From TPA_inf: Saccharomyces (lineage: Eukaryota): DNA of 64,000 nucleotides. How positions within the stretch are numbered: the first letter of the stretch is position 1; each line of letters begins with the position of its first letter. The notes under the pieces are model-generated. The model saw nothing but the letters and a program-made list of their open reading frames with translations, did not search any database and was not told the origin of the DNA. Where the stretch lies: the NCBI GenBank assembly GCA_000146045.2, contig BK006942.2, positions 375,889-439,888 of the forward strand, read 5' to 3'. The position numbers were made by a program, and so were the translations under genes. Below are positions 32,580-62,291 of this stretch, in pieces.

Positions 32580-34487
32580 ATGGCTAACGACGCTCTAAGT
32601 GCTATTTTCAGTAATCCTTCGAGGAAAGGTGTCCAACCCTCCACATCTATTGTGTCATATACAAACAATGAAGATGATATTATAGATGTGGAAAATGGGA
32701 AGTTCAACAAGAACAAGAATATCAACACTAATGTGTATGTGGACAACTCCTCAATAGAGGAGAGCGAAGTCGTGCCCTTGCCCGAAACAAAGTCCATCTG
32801 GAGTAAAATATACTACGATTTCATTGTGTTAGACAAGACAACTTTGAATGTTTCGTTGAAAGAGTCGTTCTTGTATAACAGAGACTTGAAACCGGTTGAA
32901 GAAGAAAGAAGGTGTTGGTCCTGGTTCAATTACTTATATTTCTGGCTGGCAGACTGTTTCAATATTAACACATGGCAAATAGCTGGTACAGGTCTACAAC
33001 TAGGTCTGAATTGGTGGCAATGTTGGCTTACAGTTTGGATCGGCTACACTTTTGCAGGTATCTTCGTAGTATTGAACTCGAGATTTGGTTCCGCATATCA
33101 CTTATCTTTCCCTATTACTGTTAGGGCCTCATTTGGTATATTCTTTTCTATGTGGCCGATTATAAATCGTGTCGTGATGGCTATAGTATGGTATGCCGTG
33201 CAAGCCTGGTTAGGTGCAACGCCCGTGGCACTGATGCTAAAATCTATTTTTGGCAAGAATCTGGAAGATAGAATCCCAAACCATTTTGGTTCTCCAAATA
33301 GCACTACTTTTGAATTCATGTGTTTCTTTATATTTTGGGTGGTCAGTATACCATTTGTCCTAGTGGCTCCTCATAAAATCAGGCATTTATTCACAGTAAA
33401 AGCAGCTTTGATCCCCTTCGCAGCCTTTGGATTTTTAATCTGGGCTTTGAAGAAATCGCACGGTAAAATTGAGTTGGGGACGCTGAATGATTATTCACCT
33501 CATGGTTCCGAATTTTCATGGATATTCGTTAGATCCCTAATGGCCTGTGTTGCTAACTTTGCCGCTTTGATTATCAACGCCCCTGACTTCGGTAGATTTG
33601 CCAAAAATCCTCAAGCGTCTTTGTGGCCACAATTGGTTGCCATCCCATTGTTCTTCGCCATAACATGTTTGATCGGTATCATTGTTACTGCGGCCGGTTA
33701 TCACTTATATGGGGTTAACTATTGGTCACCACTGGATGTACTTGGTCAATTTTTGGAGACCACTTACACCAGAGGTACTAGGGCTGGTGTGTTCTTGATT
33801 TCTTTTGTATTTGCCTTAGCTCAACTGGGTACAAACATTTCTGCCAACTCTCTGGCATGTGGTGCTGATATGACGGCTTTGTTTCCAAGATATATTAATA
33901 TTAGAAGAGGTTCTTTATTCTGTGTGGCAATGGCTCTATGTATCTGTCCATGGAACTTAATGGCCAGTTCAAGTAAGTTCACCAGCGCTTTGGGTGCTTA
34001 TGCAATTTTCCTTTCCAGTATTGCTGGTGTCATTTGCGCGGATTATTTCGTAGTAAGAAGAGGATATGTGAAATTAACACATTTATTCCTGGCACAGAAG
34101 GGTTCCTTTTACATGTTTGGAAACAAATTTGGTGCCAATTGGAGGGCCTTTGTTGCGTATATTTGCGGTATCGCTCCAAATTTACCAGGTTTTATAGGTG
34201 ATGTTGGAGCTCCAAAAATTACGGTTTCAGAGGGTGCAATGAGGTTATACTATTTAGGTTATCCGGTAGGTTTCTTTATTAGTGCGGTGATATACCTCAT
34301 ATTATGTTACTTTTTTCCTGTCCCTGGTACTCCCGTAACCAATTTTCTGACAGAGAAAGGATGGTTCCAAAGATGGGCTTATGTTGAGGACTTCGAGCAA
34401 GATTGGAAGAATGAGTTACGTAGGGATGACCTCTGCGATGACACAGTCAGTATCTATGATGGCACCGAGGAAAAGATAGTTTACTAA
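32580..34487 (+). CDS. DAL4: Allantoin permease (NCS1 family transporter)
   Basis: 635 aa with about 12 TM segments. Resembles uracil/allantoin permeases. Confidence 0.9.
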   Translation: MANDALSAIFSNPSRKGVQPSTSIVSYTNNEDDIIDVENGKFNKNKNINTNVYVDNSSIEESEVVPLPETKSIWSKIYYDFIVLDKTTLNVSLKESFLYNRDLKPVEEERRCWSWFNYLYFWLADCFNINTWQIAGTGLQLGLNWWQCWLTVWIGYTFAGIFVVLNSRFGSAYHLSFPITVRASFGIFFSMWPIINRVVMAIVWYAVQAWLGATPVALMLKSIFGKNLEDRIPNHFGSPNSTTFEFMCFFIFWVVSIPFVLVAPHKIRHLFTVKAALIPFAAFGFLIWALKKSHGKIELGTLNDYSPHGSEFSWIFVRSLMACVANFAALIINAPDFGRFAKNPQASLWPQLVAIPLFFAITCLIGIIVTAAGYHLYGVNYWSPLDVLGQFLETTYTRGTRAGVFLISFVFALAQLGTNISANSLACGADMTALFPRYINIRRGSLFCVAMALCICPWNLMASSSKFTSALGAYAIFLSSIAGVICADYFVVRRGYVKLTHLFLAQKGSFYMFGNKFGANWRAFVAYICGIAPNLPGFIGDVGAPKITVSEGAMRLYYLGYPVGFFISAVIYLILCYFFPVPGTPVTNFLTEKGWFQRWAYVEDFEQDWKNELRRDDLCDDTVSIYDGTEEKIVY

Positions 34488-34918
34488 ATAAAAATCCCAA
34501 TTTATTCTCTTACCAGTAGTGATCAGGAGAATTGATAATTTCTTCAAAACACCTTAATATTCGTTCTGTGTATTTTTATGTACCTTTCTTAATCAAATTT
34601 ATCAGCTTCATACATGCATTCCCGTCTGAATAATGTACTGATGATTAGCTAAACCGTCATCAACCTACCAAACTTGCGCTTGTTTGAGCCTATCAGAACT
34701 CCGGATAATTCCGACATCTTATCTTTGACTCGAATTAGCGATAAGATAAAAACACAGGAACCACAATGAAATTCAGCTGGAAGAAAAGTCTAAATTATAG
34801 ACACATTTTCTGAGATCAAATGCTATAAAGGAATGGAAGTGCATTTTGCTATGATATGGGGAAATTATGAAGCCGATCAAACAATTAATTGTATCTAATC
34901 GGTCTCTTCTTTAGAAAA

Positions 34919-38791: not shown

Positions 38792-39007
38792 TGTTCAGTG
38801 CTCTTTACCGTGCCTATGACACATACTCTAAGTGATATCAACTGCACAGAAAGTGAAGAATTAAGACTACATGCGTAAATGTCCCCATTTTATACTTATT
38901 GCTTCACCAATTGACGAAACTATCCAATCTTTGTGATACTTTCACGATGTACCTTATCCAAGATAAGCCAAAACTTATGAAATTCAATTTATGTGATAAG
39001 AAAAGCA

Positions 39008-39019
39008 AACGCAATTTTC
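39008..39019 (-). promoter_or_regulatory. UIS-ALL element (GAAAATTGCGTT in the gene orientation), the Dal82/Dal81-dependent inducer element, in the DAL7 promoter
   Basis: Exact 12-mer AACGCAATTTTC on the + strand is the reverse complement of the UIS consensus. It is flanked by GATAAG/CTTATC sites at 38953, 38962 and 38993. Confidence 0.7.
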
Positions 39020-39141
39020 CAAAATCCGCGGTATTCTATCGCACCGCAACTTTCAGCGGAGATTTTATGTCGATAATCGTAAACCTATGAAATTACTAAT
39101 ACATGAACATTTACATATTTACTTCGCCCACAGTCGCAGAA

Positions 39142-39729
39142 TTAGATGATAATACAAACGTCGCCATCGCTGTAGTGTTCTTCCACACAGTCCTTCTCGG
39201 GCCTGTCAGGGTCCAGACTTTCGTAGATTAAGACTGAAAAATCCAAATGTTCTTCCTTGCCAAGTACTATCATGGGCGCATGCCAGGTACCTAAGCCATA
39301 GGTAACGGCCTGATTACCCAAACATGTAAAAGCCCTCAACGTAGACAAGTCTGGCTTATTTCCAATTTCTTTAGCGACTACTACCAAGTATGCTACTTCC
39401 GCTGACGTTCTCCCCATAGGCACAAACGTCTGCGTACTACACGGATGCTTTTCGAGGACTTTGATAGAATGAGAAATCGCCTGATTGGAGCCTTGAGTGA
39501 ATACTCTATTCAGGTGCGGCTGTGGAAAGCAACGGAATAGGTTCCAATTGGGAACTTTACTGGTAGATTTATTCTCTACCTGGCTTACTTGAAGCAATTT
39601 GATCGCTGTTCCCTGGTTTGCACCTTTTTCAAGGTTTTGCATCCTTGAAATCTCTTCATCTGGCGAAATTATCGTCCCATACTCCTCGAAGGACTCTTTC
39701 GTCAATGTCTCCGCCACCACGGTCACCAT
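39142..39729 (-). CDS. DAL3: Ureidoglycolate lyase (ureidoglycolate hydrolase)
   Basis: 195 aa. Last gene of the DAL cluster. GATAAG at 39753 and CTTATCTTATC at about 39880 lie in its promoter. Confidence 0.85.
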   Translation of the reverse strand: MVTVVAETLTKESFEEYGTIISPDEEISRMQNLEKGANQGTAIKLLQVSQVENKSTSKVPNWNLFRCFPQPHLNRVFTQGSNQAISHSIKVLEKHPCSTQTFVPMGRTSAEVAYLVVVAKEIGNKPDLSTLRAFTCLGNQAVTYGLGTWHAPMIVLGKEEHLDFSVLIYESLDPDRPEKDCVEEHYSDGDVCIII

Positions 39730-40235
39730 ATCTTTGCTTCAAAGATTTTTTGCCCTACAAGATAAGCATCAAGAGCGATTGGATGACAGTTACTGACTTA
39801 TATATGCGAATGCACATGAATAGACCGCATATGCTTCTTATCAGTCTTACCTCGCTTATCTTTCCCCATTTATTTGCCAATCCATCTTATCTTATCTGGC
39901 ACTTTGTCTCAGGGTTAGTGTTACAAAAAGGCTAGGACTTATTTCCAAAATTCTACTTTTGAAAATAACCCTAACAATAAAAGCAAGGGCATTCTGATGT
40001 TACCCTAGAAATGTCGTATTTCTTTTTATATCGTGGATCATGACAAAAAACTCAACATTTTCAAATGGGTGAGCTCTAAACCAGAAAATACAGCCGCCGA
40101 AAGCCTTTTAAAAGGACAGCGGCGCTTGATCAACAGTCGTTCTTGGGGTCGTTAAGACTAGATCCTGCTTCCCCCCCTTATTGTGCATTTAAAGGCACTT
40201 ATTGAAGGTCATTTTGGCGAACAGAACATTTCGTT

Positions 40236-58040: not shown

Positions 58041-58415
58041 ATGGTCAAATTAACTTCAATCGCTGCTGGTGTCGCCGCCATCGCTGCTGGTGTTGCCGCT
58101 GCCCCAGCCACTACCACTCTATCTCCATCTGACGAAAGAGTTAACTTGGTCGAATTGGGTGTTTACGTCTCCGATATCAGAGCTCATTTGGCCCAATACT
58201 ACTTGTTTCAAGCAGCTCATCCAAGTGAGACCTACCCAGTTGAAATTGCTGAAGCTGTTTTCAACTATGGTGACTTCACCACCATGTTGACTGGTATTCC
58301 AGCTGAACAAGTCACCAGAGTTATCACTGGTGTTCCATGGTACTCTACCAGATTGAGACCAGCTATCTCCAGTGCTCTATCTAAGGACGGTATTTACACT
58401 GCTATTCCAAAATAG
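58041..58415 (+). CDS. PAU15: Seripauperin (PAU/TIR family cell-wall mannoprotein)
   Basis: 124 aa. Has a signal peptide with repeated [13 protein letters not shown] and the conserved PAU core. Subtelomeric location. Confidence 0.85.
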
Positions 58416-59384: not shown

Positions 59385-60095
59385 TCAGTTTGACAAGCTT
59401 TCTCTTATTGCTGCTATTCCTCTCTTTTGTTTGCCATTTTCAAAATTTGTTTTGTCTAACCATTCTTCAAAGGTTTTACGAATGCGTAACCATTCTTTAT
59501 CGATTATTGAAAACCATTGAGTGTCGCGAGTGCGACCCTTATATACCACCACTTGTCGAAACGTGCCTTCATACTTAAAGCCTAAGCGCATCGCTGCCCT
59601 CCTTGACGGCCCATTTAAACTATCACACTTCCACTCATATCTCCTGTATTGAAGATCATCAAATACATACTTCATTAACAGAAATTGAGCTTCAGTTGCA
59701 ATAATCGTCTTCTGTAATTCTGGTGAAAAAACAACATATCCAACTTCTAGTGAACCGTTGGCTTCATCGATTCTTATTAAGCACAATGTACCAACGGCAC
59801 GTTCAGTCTCTTTATTAATAATTGCGAAAGGCACAGTATCTTTAGTTTCATTGAGTTCCTTAATGAATTCTAGATATTCCTCCAAGTTAGTGAATGGTCC
59901 CGCAGGTAAATACGTCCATAATTTTTGGCCTGCCTCACTATAGGCACTAAAAAGTTCCGAACCATGTCTTTCTCTATCTAGAGGTTCTAGTCTGCAAGTG
60001 TTACCTTTCAATACAACTTTCTCTGGGAAGGCCCTTGTTGTCCAACCTTCGACGTCAGCACCAACTTCTTGCCCAAATATATTTAAATTCGCCAT
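59385..60095 (-). CDS. GNAT-family N-acetyltransferase of unknown function (RimJ/RimL-like), YIR042C
   Basis: 236 aa. Has GNAT motifs A/B ([19 protein letters not shown]...[10 protein letters not shown]). Confidence 0.8.
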
Positions 60096-60190
60096 AATTG
60101 TTTCTACTGAAGGGCATTATTTCCAGGTTCAGAGGCGGGAAAATTCTTGCAAGGCGTCCTCCCATGCTATTTTTATATCATTGTTGATTG

Positions 60191-60223
60191 TTTATCAACC
60201 TCTTATCAACCTCCTATCAACCT
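60191..60223. promoter_or_regulatory. Three tandem roughly 11-bp repeats (TTATCAACCTC) giving GATAA/GATAG sites, followed by a TATA box, in the YIR042C promoter
   Basis: tttatcaacctc-ttatcaacctc-ctatcaacct is seen directly. In the gene orientation it reads GGTTGATAG-GAGGTTGATAAG-AGGTTGATAAA followed by TATAAAAATA. Confidence 0.7.
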
Positions 60224-61154
60224 TTGAAGAATGGCTCAAAAAAAAAACAACCTTCCATTATGAACCAATAAACAGAGCAAATATCACGTGCACAAAGAAC
60301 TACGAACTTTTTGACTTTCACACTGGCGATGATCCAAGACGTATTACAGTACAAGAGATCTGCTTTATTGTAAGCCCAGTAAACAGCTTCTTATAGACTC
60401 TGCAAATATAGGTACAGAGTTTGCATAATTTTCTAATATACACTTATGCCTTATGATAATCCCAATTTTGAGAAGGAGACAAATTCAGCGAGTGGCGTAT
60501 AAGTGCGTGCGCTATTGAAACAAATCTCACATAAATGTGTTTATGATCAGCAATAACCTTATCGATGCAACAGAAAATGTGATTCGCGAAATTTGCATCT
60601 TTCTTTTCAAAAAATATTTCAAAAACAAATTGCCAAGAGATGATGAAAACAAATCACTCAATTCAAGTTAAATAAGAACTCGTGTATATATAGAAAATAT
60701 GAGGAAATGTACTCCATTTCAACTGCTTGACTTTAAAATGATGCTGGCTCATGAGAAGCCTCCAAGAAATAATATCGGTGTTACTATTCCAATACTTTCG
60801 ATCCGCTCTGTGCTAAATAGGCAAACTCAAAAGTAATAAATACATACACATATTACGGAGATTTGTGCCTTTAAGGAATATAAATTATAATTATCTGCTA
60901 GTTTACATTTTAATGGCTCCAAACATTTATTTTCTAGAAGTGCTCCTTAATAAACAATAATCTTAAAAGAATAATTATGGAGCGTGTCCGGTTGTAATTA
61001 ATACTCAGTAATTATATATAATTTGAGAATTATGCTCGTGTGCATTTTCTTCCAATATATTATACTCTGAACCATGTCGTGCTGTGTGCATAAAATTGCT
61101 CGATGAAAATCTTAACCCACCTTTTAGGTTGAAAAAAACATGTTCACTTTTTCA

Positions 61155-62291
61155 CTAAAGACTTGTTACCACGGATTGTGCTTCTTTAACGTATGGCCAT
61201 AGCTCAACGTTCAACGAAGCAAACCACATAGTTTTTTTTAAAGATAAAAGGCGATAGAAAAAGCAGCTAAAAAACCATTCACAGTCAAGTCCATCGTAGA
61301 AAAACTCTTCATTATTCCAGACTTTTTTCTCAAACAAATACCTATTCATTTTCTTTGCAATTTCGTCCCATCCATTCGCACCGCTTTCTTGCTCATTTAT
61401 AATAGTTGACAAGAACTGCATCTTGTGTTCCATTTTAACGGATAAAACAATCATTCCCATATTTTGGAAATCTCTCGTCATGATAAAAAACATTACTACC
61501 GGAAACAAGAAACGTGATATAAGGTCAACATTTCCAGACGTGTAGACAATTAAAAAATAATAAAGGAAGACTTGTAAACACCGCAGCTTGAAAATCCTTT
61601 TAAGAATCCAGGTAAGCTTAAATCGGTAAGCTTCTTTGGGAAGTTTAGCATCTTCTAGGCCAACAGGGCTCCATGATTTTTCAGTATTAAACAACTTCCA
61701 TTGTTTTTCAACTTCTGTAAAATAAACTCCCAATGCTTCTTCAATGTAAGAGACGGAATCCTTAAATGACTTAACCTTGGCAGCTTCGTCTTTTTTCAAA
61801 GAGAAGGGTTCGAGAAGGGTTGTTCTGAACGCTTCTTGGCAGCCCATGGCATTGAAGAAAAAGTACCTAGTATTCCAAGCCTTATTTTCATATAAGTACG
61901 AATTTAGATTTGCTGCAACGATTTCCCAATTATGAGTATCCAAACTTGGTGCGTTTTTAGTAATATCTTTGCAAAACTGAGTGAGTTGTTTCGATAAGGA
62001 GCGCTTACGAGAAGGTTCACGAATAACAAGGAGAAATATTGGTCCCAAAACCAGGACAAGAAGTGAAACTATAAATTGGTAAACCCAATTGTTGGAAAGT
62101 TTCCATCAGATGCTAAGTGGTAGCCATAATAGCATCCAGATGCGAAACGCTAAAGACTTGTAAATTTCATAACAAAACCAGGTCAATTCGTTTCGGAAAA
62201 CATCCTGGGGTAAAACAGTCTTTTGGGATTCGAGCTGTTTGAAGGATAACACATCTACGCTTTTCTCATCTTTGACTTCATTCTCTTTCAT
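61155..62291 (-). pseudogene. COS (DUP380) family pseudogene interrupted by frameshift/stop (YIR043C + YIR044C fragments)
   Basis: The 61-aa ORF MKENEVKDEKSVDVLSFKQLESQK... is the COS N-terminus. The 297-aa ORF is the COS body but lacks continuity. The break lies near 62049..62105. Confidence 0.8.

Follow-up and report, generated by a model that had tools for sequence, protein, structure and literature searches.

YIR042C of Saccharomyces cerevisiae: a subtelomeric GNAT acetyltransferase with bacterial affinities and a promoter suggestive of nutrient-stress control

Background

Towards one end of the 64,000-nucleotide stretch of Saccharomyces DNA considered here (the window; contig BK006942.2 of assembly GCA_000146045.2, forward-strand positions 375,889 to 439,888) lies a gene for a 236-residue N-acetyltransferase of the GNAT class, flanked by a seripauperin (PAU) gene and a broken COS gene. 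The layout corresponds to S. cerevisiae chromosome IX at its right end, where the open reading frame (ORF) is YIR042C, one of the remaining ORFs of this yeast without an assigned function. The locus raises two questions. Firstly, three tandem GATA-containing repeats precede the TATA box of the gene, and a first-pass annotation made from the DNA letters had read them as the mark of a promoter subject to nitrogen catabolite repression (NCR), like those of the DAL genes in the same window. Secondly, the bacterial appearance of the protein raises the issue of its descent. The ORF and its GNAT domain are already annotated, and its sensitivity to Dal80 is known from published supplementary tables; the present analysis adds evidence that the gene is of ancient bacterial origin, the association of the bacterial orthologs with MocR-type regulators, and the apparent history of the promoter, in which a Gcn4 site was lost and GATA units were gained. 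None of these findings overturns current knowledge.

The account that we favor, with moderate confidence, is that YIR042C is a GNAT enzyme of bacterial origin that acts on a small amine or amino-acid-like compound, and that is transcribed from a nutrient-stress promoter with a plausible input from GATA factors. The protein would be a functional, single-domain, acyl-CoA-dependent N-acetyltransferase of the Acetyltransf_3 type, belonging to a tightly conserved, overwhelmingly bacterial and uncharacterized subfamily. A single old transfer of a bacterial gene into the ancestor of the Saccharomycetaceae would have been followed by vertical inheritance, with later relocation among subtelomeres and duplication. 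The enzyme would N-acetylate the free amino group of its substrate, resulting in detoxification or removal from metabolism, with a ribosomal protein being a less likely target. The promoter, which runs from a Cbf1-type E-box through a CCAAT box, T-run and decayed Gcn4 site to the three GATA units and then the TATA box, would integrate nutrient-stress signals atop subtelomeric chromatin effects; the GATA tandem plausibly adds an input from Dal80, Gln3 and Gat1, without making the gene as strongly NCR-sensitive as the DAL genes. Which factor acts through which of these sites is something that we infer.

Results and discussion

Sequence, structure and conserved features of the YIR042C protein

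YIR042C is a genuine gene under purifying selection: its product is 99% identical to S. cerevisiae database proteins, and its ratio of non-synonymous to synonymous substitutions (dN/dS) is 0.06-0.15 in comparisons with S. uvarum, S. mikatae and a second S. cerevisiae copy. The ORF was recovered exactly as first annotated, and its assignment to the GNAT class is borne out by both sequence and structure. It matches the Pfam profile Acetyltransf_3 (PF13302) with E=1.2e-16 and 62 bits, against a gathering cut-off of 25.4, over positions 11-138 of the 138 in the profile; a weaker match is to Acetyltransf_1 (E=7e-6). The nearest solved structure is a GNAT from Brucella melitensis (PDB: 3tcv; E=4e-61, query residues 13-231), followed by one from Chromobacterium (PDB: 3pzj). 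An AlphaFold2 (AF2) model with a mean confidence (pLDDT) of 89.6 superposes on 3tcv with a template-modelling (TM) score of 0.89-0.94 and 44% identity in the structural alignment. The top Foldseek matches of the model are all GNATs, namely 3tcv, then 3pzj, TTHA1799, PA3270 and SpeG; those beyond 3tcv and 3pzj are RimL-like, PA3270-like or SpeG-like enzymes of 18-26% identity, and the TM score for SpeG is just 0.53-0.58. The PA3270/8gx* neighbors, which are GNAT toxins of toxin-antitoxin systems, were considered as a guide to function and set aside as too distant (24-26% identity). A literature search found no paper citing 3TCV or 3PZJ.

The first-pass annotation had also noted a resemblance to RimJ/RimL. 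This stands at the level of the Acetyltransf_3 family, but YIR042C is not a RimL equivalog: the NCBIfam RimL model NF007539, although the best NCBIfam match (E=2e-8), scores 33.9 bits against a cut-off of 184, and the SpeG model NF011709 scores 26.5 bits against 218. With scores so far under both cut-offs, YIR042C is neither enzyme. An alignment of 29 yeast and bacterial members provides a more specific signature, with 51 columns invariant across yeasts, Proteobacteria and Actinobacteria. In the catalytic core these include E117, Y150-R151-R152, W155, C157, N161, S164 and R170-L171-G172-F173. A further set, comprised of W202, W212-L213, N217, G221 and Q223, falls in a C-terminal extension, where the AF2 model has helices at 199-213 and 227-235. 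By this alignment, the extension is a mark of the YIR042C subfamily.

Architecture and history of the promoter

The first-pass annotation was right in placing three tandem repeats of about 11 bp, each with a GATA core, ahead of a TATA box, though only the GATAAG and GATAAA units have the canonical GATAA, the remaining one being GATAG. Tandem Repeats Finder gives the consensus as TTATCAACCTC. On the gene strand the repeat reads AGGTTGATAG-GAGGTTGATAAG-AGGTTGATAAAC or, with its spacers set apart, GGTTGATAG-GA-GGTTGATAAG-A-GGTTGATAAAC; relative to the ATG, the cores are GATAG at -123, GATAAG at -112 and GATAAA at -101, and the repeat as a whole sits 15-45 bp upstream of the TATA box.

The occurrence of GATAA in the window as a whole (193 observed, 208 expected) amounts to no enrichment. 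Same-strand GATAA pairs at most 12 bp apart number 5 in the 64 kb, where 1.8 would be expected, and of the four outside the YIR042C promoter three belong to the DAL cluster. Triplets of same-strand GATA within 25 bp are seen 5 times against 1.4 expected, with at least one such triplet in 68% of shuffles. In statistical terms, the arrangement is not exceptional. The 9-mer GGTTGATAA, searched exactly, is confined to the YIR042C repeat within the window and is not a dispersed motif. Given the unenriched GATAA, the chance counts and the uniqueness of GGTTGATAA, the three GATA sites arose by one local tandem duplication rather than by independent selection of three sites, and their weight rests on their nearness to the TATA box and their partial conservation in S. 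uvarum. An internal yardstick of a strong NCR promoter is provided by the DAL intergenic regions, which hold the densest GATAA clusters of the window (34450-34750, 37030 and 38850-39900), including close same-strand pairs. Whereas these promoters have 5-6 GATAA per 300 bp, that of YIR042C has 2-3.

The upstream regions of the window copy, S. uvarum, the second S. cerevisiae copy and S. mikatae were aligned. A conserved block extends from about -200 to -70 and holds the E-box, the CCAAT box, the T-run, a Gcn4-type site, the GGTTGATAA units and the TATA box; this block, including at least one GGTTGATAAG, is kept between S. cerevisiae and S. uvarum, while the sequence further upstream is not. The E-box CACGTGA lies at -195 in the window copy, -189 in S. 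uvarum and -184 in the second S. cerevisiae copy. The CCAAT-type element TTATTGGT, which by the consensus TNATTGGT we take to belong to the HAP complex, recurs at -170 in S. uvarum and -166 in the second copy. The S. mikatae promoter is unrelated and has none of the elements of the block, the E-box included. Three further elements were sought without result: a Met31/32 site (TGTGGC) in the 1059 bp upstream of YIR042C, an Rtg1/3 R-box (GTCAC) in its promoter, despite the Rtg3-dependent expression described below, and, by reading the sequence, a perfect RYAAT Met4-recruitment motif beside the E-box.

The number of GATA units varies among these promoters: three in the window copy, two in S. uvarum, one in the second S. 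cerevisiae copy and none in the upstream region of S. mikatae. The first unit of the window copy stands in the place of GGTKCTTCGAA of S. uvarum and the second copy. By this comparison, the third unit is particular to this S. cerevisiae copy, and the tandem as a whole is a recent elaboration within the Saccharomyces lineage. The Gcn4-type site of the window copy reads TGAGCCA, which departs from the Gcn4 consensus TGASTCA by one mismatch and aligns with TGACTCA of the orthologous promoters. S. uvarum carries a perfect TGASTCA at -139, the second S. cerevisiae copy at -133 and Zygosaccharomyces rouxii at -213; Lachancea nothofagi and L. lanzarotensis account for sites at -101 and -111, and L. 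dasiensis has two, at -123 and -354. The chance of one in 300 bp is about 0.04 per promoter. Across the Saccharomycetaceae it is the most widely conserved upstream element of the gene, and the distant orthologs outside Saccharomyces have GATAA counts at background and the recurrent Gcn4 site instead. Since TGASTCA recurs in these distant orthologs, it is the ancestral conserved element, and the window copy has lost its consensus. If this reading is right, the locus is a small example of promoter turnover, in which a Gcn4 site was lost and GATA sites were gained by tandem duplication.

Expression data and competing views of regulation

In the RNA-seq data of Ronsmans et al. 2019 (PMC6413948), YIR042C is included in the 'Dal80-Repressed (232)' list for growth on proline (S5 Table). 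The same paper marks the gene as previously nitrogen-regulated, citing only Wu et al. 2004; the screens of Godard 2007 and Scherens 2006 are not cited for it in that compilation. The nitrogen regulation first proposed for the gene is partly backed by this listing and citation, but not by the other tables of the study, which also weigh against the GATA input of our favored account: 1) YIR042C is not among the 754 genes induced on proline versus glutamine. 2) No two-fold or greater difference between glutamine and proline is given for it. 3) It is not among the 1269 Dal80-bound promoters (S1). 4) It is in neither the S8 promoter/ORF lists nor the S9 lists of Gat1-bound genes. The non-canonical GATAG in one of the three units points the same way. 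YIR042C is likewise not entered in the column 'Genes with Gcn4 binding sites' (S5). The Dal80-repressed set is itself rich in genes of sulfur and methionine metabolism, namely CYS3, CYS4, SUL1, MET3, MET14, MET32, SAM1, SAM2, MUP1, JLP1, MMP1, MHT1 and SEO1, and it includes CIT2 too (PMC6413948 S5). With these genes in the list, the change in YIR042C could come via other pathways; its derepression in dal80-delta may be indirect and is not by itself evidence of direct GATA control.

The proposal that YIR042C is a bona fide NCR gene, activated by Gln3/Gat1 via three GATA sites and repressed by Dal80 in the manner of the DAL genes, is best seen as a possibility that we hold doubtful. Two GATAA and one GATAG arranged head-to-tail 11 bp apart immediately upstream of a TATA box, two of them with conserved counterparts in S. 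uvarum, are what such a gene might be expected to have; most of the other close GATAA pairs of the window are in DAL promoters, and the Dal80-repressed listing on proline, together with the citation of Wu et al. 2004, agrees with it (PMC6413948). This is countered by the absence of the gene from the glutamine-versus-proline set and from the Dal80- and Gat1-bound lists, by a compilation relying on Wu et al. 2004 alone, by the lower density of GATAA relative to the DAL promoters, by the Dal80 repression of MET/sulfur genes and CIT2, which leaves room for an indirect effect, and by the lack of GATA clusters in the S. mikatae, Torulaspora and Lachancea orthologs.

A second set of data concerns sulfur metabolism. 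From 176 in wild type, the YIR042C probe signal climbs to 562 in met15-delta and drops to 133 in met15-delta rtg3-delta (Johnson & Johnson 2014, PMC4022668), which amounts to a 3.2-fold induction that is Rtg3-dependent, in day-3 stationary cultures. BDS1, SUL1, MET5 and SEO1 follow the same pattern (PMC4022668). Two genes of pyridoxal 5'-phosphate (PLP) synthase, SNZ2 and SNZ3, share both the induction and the Rtg3 dependence (PMC4022668 supplementary file 2). It is conceivable, albeit in our estimate unlikely, that YIR042C is mainly a gene of methionine/sulfur limitation or of the retrograde response, acting via the E-box (Cbf1-Met4-Met28) and/or Rtg1/3, with the GATA sites being secondary. 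The retention of CACGTGA in S. uvarum and the second S. cerevisiae copy, the shared pattern just described and the co-derepression of sulfur genes with YIR042C in dal80-delta (PMC6413948) would all follow from it. It fits poorly with the missing Met31/32 site, R-box and perfect RYAAT motif; the gene is not named in the main texts of the Met4-regulon papers searched, and the effect of met15-delta may be indirect because the cultures were in day-3 stationary phase.

The chromatin setting provides a further view. In other papers YIR042C serves as a reporter of Sir2 spreading and of Rpd3 anti-silencing at telomere IX-R, and its mRNA is lower, in a Sir-dependent manner, in rpd3 and many other chromatin or boundary mutants. 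From this it might be proposed that the GATA tandem is a neutral product of replication slippage, expression being set mainly by Sir spreading versus Rpd3L and boundary factors. We regard this as improbable to about the same degree as control by sulfur limitation. Its premises are sound insofar as a single duplication of an 11-bp unit yielded the three sites, their copy number is 3, 2, 1 or 0 among close relatives, shuffled windows produce comparable triplets in 68% of cases, and no chromatin immunoprecipitation (ChIP) signal of a GATA factor is reported (PMC6413948). Neutrality is harder to square with the conservation of the -200 to -70 block, including at least one GGTTGATAAG, when the sequence further upstream is not kept between S. 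cerevisiae and S. uvarum; with the position of the repeat so close to the TATA box; and with the altered expression upon loss of Dal80 (PMC6413948). The expression data as a whole support nutrient-stress regulation with a possible input from GATA factors, and do not support membership in the core NCR regulon. The first-pass annotation overstated NCR, and made no mention of three further promoter inputs that would run through the E-box, CCAAT box and decayed Gcn4 site.

Bacterial affinities and the origin of the gene

The bacterial-like character that had been noted for the protein is evident from its closest relatives outside the Saccharomycetaceae, which are bacterial among the best 120 matches. 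Orthologs in Saccharomyces are 82-89% identical to YIR042C, and those of other yeasts fall to 59% in Zygosaccharomyces and 51-55% in Torulaspora and Lachancea; bacterial relatives from Cedecea, Ralstonia, Arthrobacter, Burkholderia and Streptomyces are at this same level, with 52-57%, and the bacterial proteins overall range over 46-57%, about as close as Lachancea (53%). In searches with either the single sequence or a yeast-only profile, bacteria rank directly after the Saccharomycetaceae, and no fungus from outside this family is among the best 120 matches. The tandem-double GNATs that topped a representative search are of bacterial rather than fungal origin. A scan of one genome per prokaryotic species found at least 600 bacterial loci with a relative, spanning Beta-, Gamma- and Alphaproteobacteria, Actinobacteria, Chloroflexi, Gemmatimonadota, Verrucomicrobia and Myxococcota.

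Phylogenetic trees were built by neighbor-joining from about 234 columns and rooted on the 3pzj paralog. The yeasts form a single clade, with a topology resembling the species tree and a bootstrap of 89% with 98 taxa and 57% with 109 taxa. This clade is nested among the bacteria, which are monophyletic without yeasts in just 4.7% of 300 bootstraps. The mean identities are 53% between Saccharomyces and Lachancea, 51% between Saccharomyces and bacteria and 56% among bacteria; these figures sit poorly with vertical inheritance from an ancestor shared by bacteria and eukaryotes. In eight species the gene is embedded in yeast contigs of 0.4-1.8 Mb, beside PAU, IMD, YPS, MFS and other yeast genes, which speaks against contamination. 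The nesting of the yeast clade inside the bacteria implies that any transfer was ancient and followed by vertical descent. These results are consistent with, while not proving, a horizontal acquisition before the split of Lachancea and Saccharomyces, and the direction would probably have been from bacteria to yeast. Hence, the horizontal acquisition suggested at first, for which a phylogeny with bacteria had been called for, finds backing from the nesting, though as an ancient event rather than a recent subtelomeric gain. A literature search did not find YIR042C proposed as a candidate for horizontal transfer, and the word 'acetyltransferase' does not occur in Rolland 2009. If the transfer is true, it adds an ancient gene of bacterial origin to a short list for the Saccharomyces lineage, one under purifying selection throughout the history of the Saccharomycetaceae.

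Certain considerations weaken this case. The trees are distance-based, with about 234 columns, and the nearest bacterial sisters of the yeasts, Entomomonas, Acinetobacter nectaris and A. pollinis, are weakly supported. The latter two are nectar species. All three are suspected to be AT-rich, so that a shared amino acid composition could draw them towards the yeasts. More distant fungal homologs could exist beyond the best 120 matches, and one paper reports homologs of YIR042C in Saccharomycopsis. An ancient eukaryotic or fungal GNAT, inherited vertically without any transfer and very well conserved, would account for this report and for the resemblance of the Saccharomycetaceae tree to the species tree, the absence from other fungi being judged on the best 120 matches only. 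We nevertheless regard it as very unlikely: with the yeast-only profile, more than 85 bacterial clusters rank before any fungus from outside the Saccharomycetaceae or any other eukaryote, about 95% of bootstraps place the yeasts inside the bacteria, and identities as close as 51% and 53% are implausible for divergence times that are more than 10-fold apart, unless the gene arrived late.

Bacterial gene neighborhoods and the probable class of substrate

Of 80 bacterial loci examined, 71 had enough upstream DNA to be assessed, and in 27 of these a divergent regulator combining GntR and Aminotran_1_2 domains (MocR-type, PLP-dependent) is encoded upstream. It lies within 200 bp of the GNAT gene in 25 of the 27, usually at 50-150 bp, and the pairing recurs in Beta- and Gammaproteobacteria, in Streptomyces and in Opitutaceae. 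Known regulators of the MocR type, among them GabR, PdxR and TauR, use a PLP cofactor to sense amino compounds. Acetyltransferases of the RimL family have also been placed in predicted MocR regulons (Suvorova & Rodionov 2016, PMC5320631). Other contexts include an AsnC/Lrp regulator with an EamA exporter, an ABC transporter of the LIV type and, in A. pollinis, an MFS-GNAT operon beside an AcrB pump. In about 10% of the loci a second small GNAT of the Acetyltransf_1/7/10 type is directly downstream or fused, as in the 392-residue proteins of Cedecea. Together with the Gcn4 site in the yeast orthologs, these neighborhoods hint at a small amine or amino-acid-like substrate, for which YIR042C may have a detoxifying role. 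If this is true, the MocR-type regulator ties an uncharacterized bacterial GNAT subfamily, with at least 600 loci and two orphan crystal structures, to a testable class of substrates.

Several observations argue against such an enzyme or blur its assignment: 1) The GNAT motif Q/R-x-x-G-x-G/A is partly kept, being Q128-K-T-I-I-A133 in yeast and K/Q-R-T-P-x-S in bacterial members, with the central glycine lost; acetyl-CoA may nonetheless be bound via backbone amides. 2) Members of the subfamily are without a known substrate, and the match to 3tcv thus brings a structure but no function. 3) The bacterial neighborhoods are heterogeneous, with about 60% of loci having no MocR gene. 4) The fusion partners are diverse (a second GNAT, dUTPase_2, FMN_red, PNPOx, ABM, a TIM-barrel and an alpha/beta hydrolase) and yield no single functional hint. 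5) In the one published assay found, GST-YIR042C produced in E. coli left 5-methoxytryptamine unacetylated, and no melatonin was formed. Around the 80 bacterial loci no PNPOx-like (within 5 kb), FMN-reductase or ABM genes were found. In the absence of a nearby PNPOx-like gene a specific link to vitamin B6 is unsupported, and the connection with PLP comes from the type of regulator. In yeasts, the L. nothofagi ortholog has a pyridoxal-kinase-like gene 3 kb away, and the Z. rouxii ortholog has a class-V aminotransferase gene upstream; along with SNZ2/SNZ3, these hints of vitamin B6 or PLP may be coincidence.

A more specific scenario, to which we assign a low probability, is that YIR042C belongs with its bacterial relatives to a family dedicated to the N-acetylation, and hence the disarming, of a natural amino-compound antimetabolite: in bacteria, the MocR regulator would sense the compound via PLP and turn on the enzyme, and yeasts would have captured the gene from bacteria and rewired it to Gcn4 and subsequently, in Saccharomyces, to GATA factors. 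Candidate antimetabolites would be PLP-reactive amino acid analogs or a B6-related amine. If true, this would represent a cross-kingdom transfer of a resistance function, with a convergent logic of induction by the stress that the enzyme relieves.

That YIR042C is instead a RimL/RimJ-like protein N-alpha-acetyltransferase, acting on a ribosomal or other protein, is very improbable: Acetyltransf_3 is the RimJ/RimL family, several sources label homologs as such, the RimL model is the best NCBIfam match and 51 invariant columns would suit a conserved macromolecular target, but that match falls far short of its cut-off, the bacterial genes stand beside MocR, AsnC and LysR regulators, EamA and MFS transporters and a second GNAT rather than in ribosomal contexts, the matched RimL-type structures (aligned over 166-194 residues) lack the C-terminal extension, and the patchy distribution in yeasts argues against a core translational role, as would the presumed non-essentiality of the gene.

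Chromosomal setting and subtelomeric copies

The features of the locus are collected in Table 1. The setting between a PAU gene and a broken COS gene, as first annotated, was found as described; the remains of the latter (61155..62291) are consistent with the pseudogene YIR043C/YIR044C. Further left of the PAU gene is a gene for a yapsin-type aspartyl protease. The DAL genes, correctly placed about 20 kb away by the first-pass annotation, occupy 30.4-39.7 kb of the window and encode allantoinase, permease, allantoicase, malate synthase and ureidoglycolate lyase. An Rfam search of 56-64 kb of the window found no RNA family.

Table 1. Features of the YIR042C locus, in window coordinates; promoter positions are relative to the ATG of YIR042C.
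Feature	Coordinates	Strand	Details
PAU gene (seripauperin, SRP1_TIP1)	58041..58415	+	flanks YIR042C
YIR042C ORF, 236 aa	59385..60095	-	ATG start and stop codon intact
C-terminal helical extension, residues ~199-231	59403..59501	-	conserved; invariant alignment columns
GNAT catalytic core, residues 44-174	59574..59966	-	Pfam Acetyltransf_3 match
TATA box TATAAAA, -82	60171..60177	-	motif scan; kept in S. uvarum and second S. cerevisiae copy
11-bp tandem repeat x 2.9	60192..60223	-	Tandem Repeats Finder, 95% matches, score 57
Degenerate Gcn4-type site TGAGCCA	60232..60238	-	aligns with TGACTCA of orthologous promoters
Poly(dT), T10 on gene strand	60238..60247	-	read from sequence; conserved in alignment
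CCAAT-type element TTATTGGT, -176	60264..60271	-	motif scans; consensus TNATTGGT
Cbf1-type E-box CACGTGA, -195 (TCACGTG on +)	60284..60290	-	motif scan
DUP/COS family ORF, 297 aa	61155..62048	-	other flank of YIR042C
Detached N-terminal piece of DUP/COS gene, 61 aa	62106..62291	-	

The gene appears to have moved among chromosome ends. The second copy, present in some S. cerevisiae strains, is 89% identical and is located on another contig, about 20-30 kb inward of its end, where it adjoins a PAU gene and a gene for a Zn-cluster transcription factor; a further variant is 87% identical. S. mikatae has at least three identical copies on three chromosomes, each in the same block of IMD (IMP dehydrogenase, IMPDH), GNAT, PAU and yapsin genes near a chromosome end, so that the block is a subtelomeric cassette that has been duplicated. 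A convergent PAU (SRP1_TIP1) gene accompanies the GNAT gene in S. cerevisiae, S. mikatae and S. uvarum, even on different chromosomes. Synonymous divergence (dS) between S. cerevisiae and S. uvarum (0.59) is lower than between S. cerevisiae and S. mikatae (1.55), opposite to the species tree, and the promoter aligns with that of S. uvarum and not of S. mikatae, parallel to the order of dS. This pattern suggests a sorting of paralogs, or introgression, among subtelomeric copies.

Comparison with known systems

Mpr1/Mpr2 of S. cerevisiae Sigma1278b offer a precedent within yeast, as non-essential subtelomeric GNATs that N-acetylate the toxic azetidine-2-carboxylate and have a role in oxidative stress. 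YIR042C is likened to Mpr1 by analogy and not by sequence, Mpr1 not being among the homologs retrieved. E. coli RimL and RimJ and the C-terminal domain of MccE, which share Acetyltransf_3 and the GNAT fold with YIR042C, are acyl-CoA-dependent acetylators of the alpha-amino group; RimL and MccE also acetylate aminoacyl-nucleotide antibiotics. RimL-like structures are about 20-25% identical to YIR042C, whose subfamily adds the C-terminal extension and has other bacterial gene neighborhoods.

With the UAS-NTR/URS-GATA elements of NCR genes, as in the DAL cluster, YIR042C shares GATAA(G) cores near the TATA box and a Dal80-sensitive mRNA. Unlike the DAL promoters, with their 5-6 sites per 300 bp, it has two canonical sites, which stem from one tandem duplication, and unlike NCR genes it has neither a reported response to glutamine versus proline nor a Dal80 or Gat1 ChIP peak (PMC6413948).

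The regulons of MocR-type regulators (PdxR/PdxW/PdxQ) that contain RimL- or RimI-family acetyltransferases (PMC5320631) show a pairing like that at the 27 of 71 loci with YIR042C orthologs. The likeness is one of gene pairing; no PNPOx-like gene was found within 5 kb at the 80 loci of the YIR042C type. Yeasts have no MocR regulators, so that control in yeast would have been rebuilt with yeast factors. The closest counterparts are 3tcv and the bacterial proteins of about 235-245 residues labeled 'GNAT family N-acetyltransferase', which are of the same subfamily, with up to 57% identity, and which share with YIR042C the C-terminal extension and the 51 invariant residues. What sets YIR042C apart from this group is that it is eukaryotic and subtelomeric, and stands under a promoter of apparently nutrient-responsive, yeast type.

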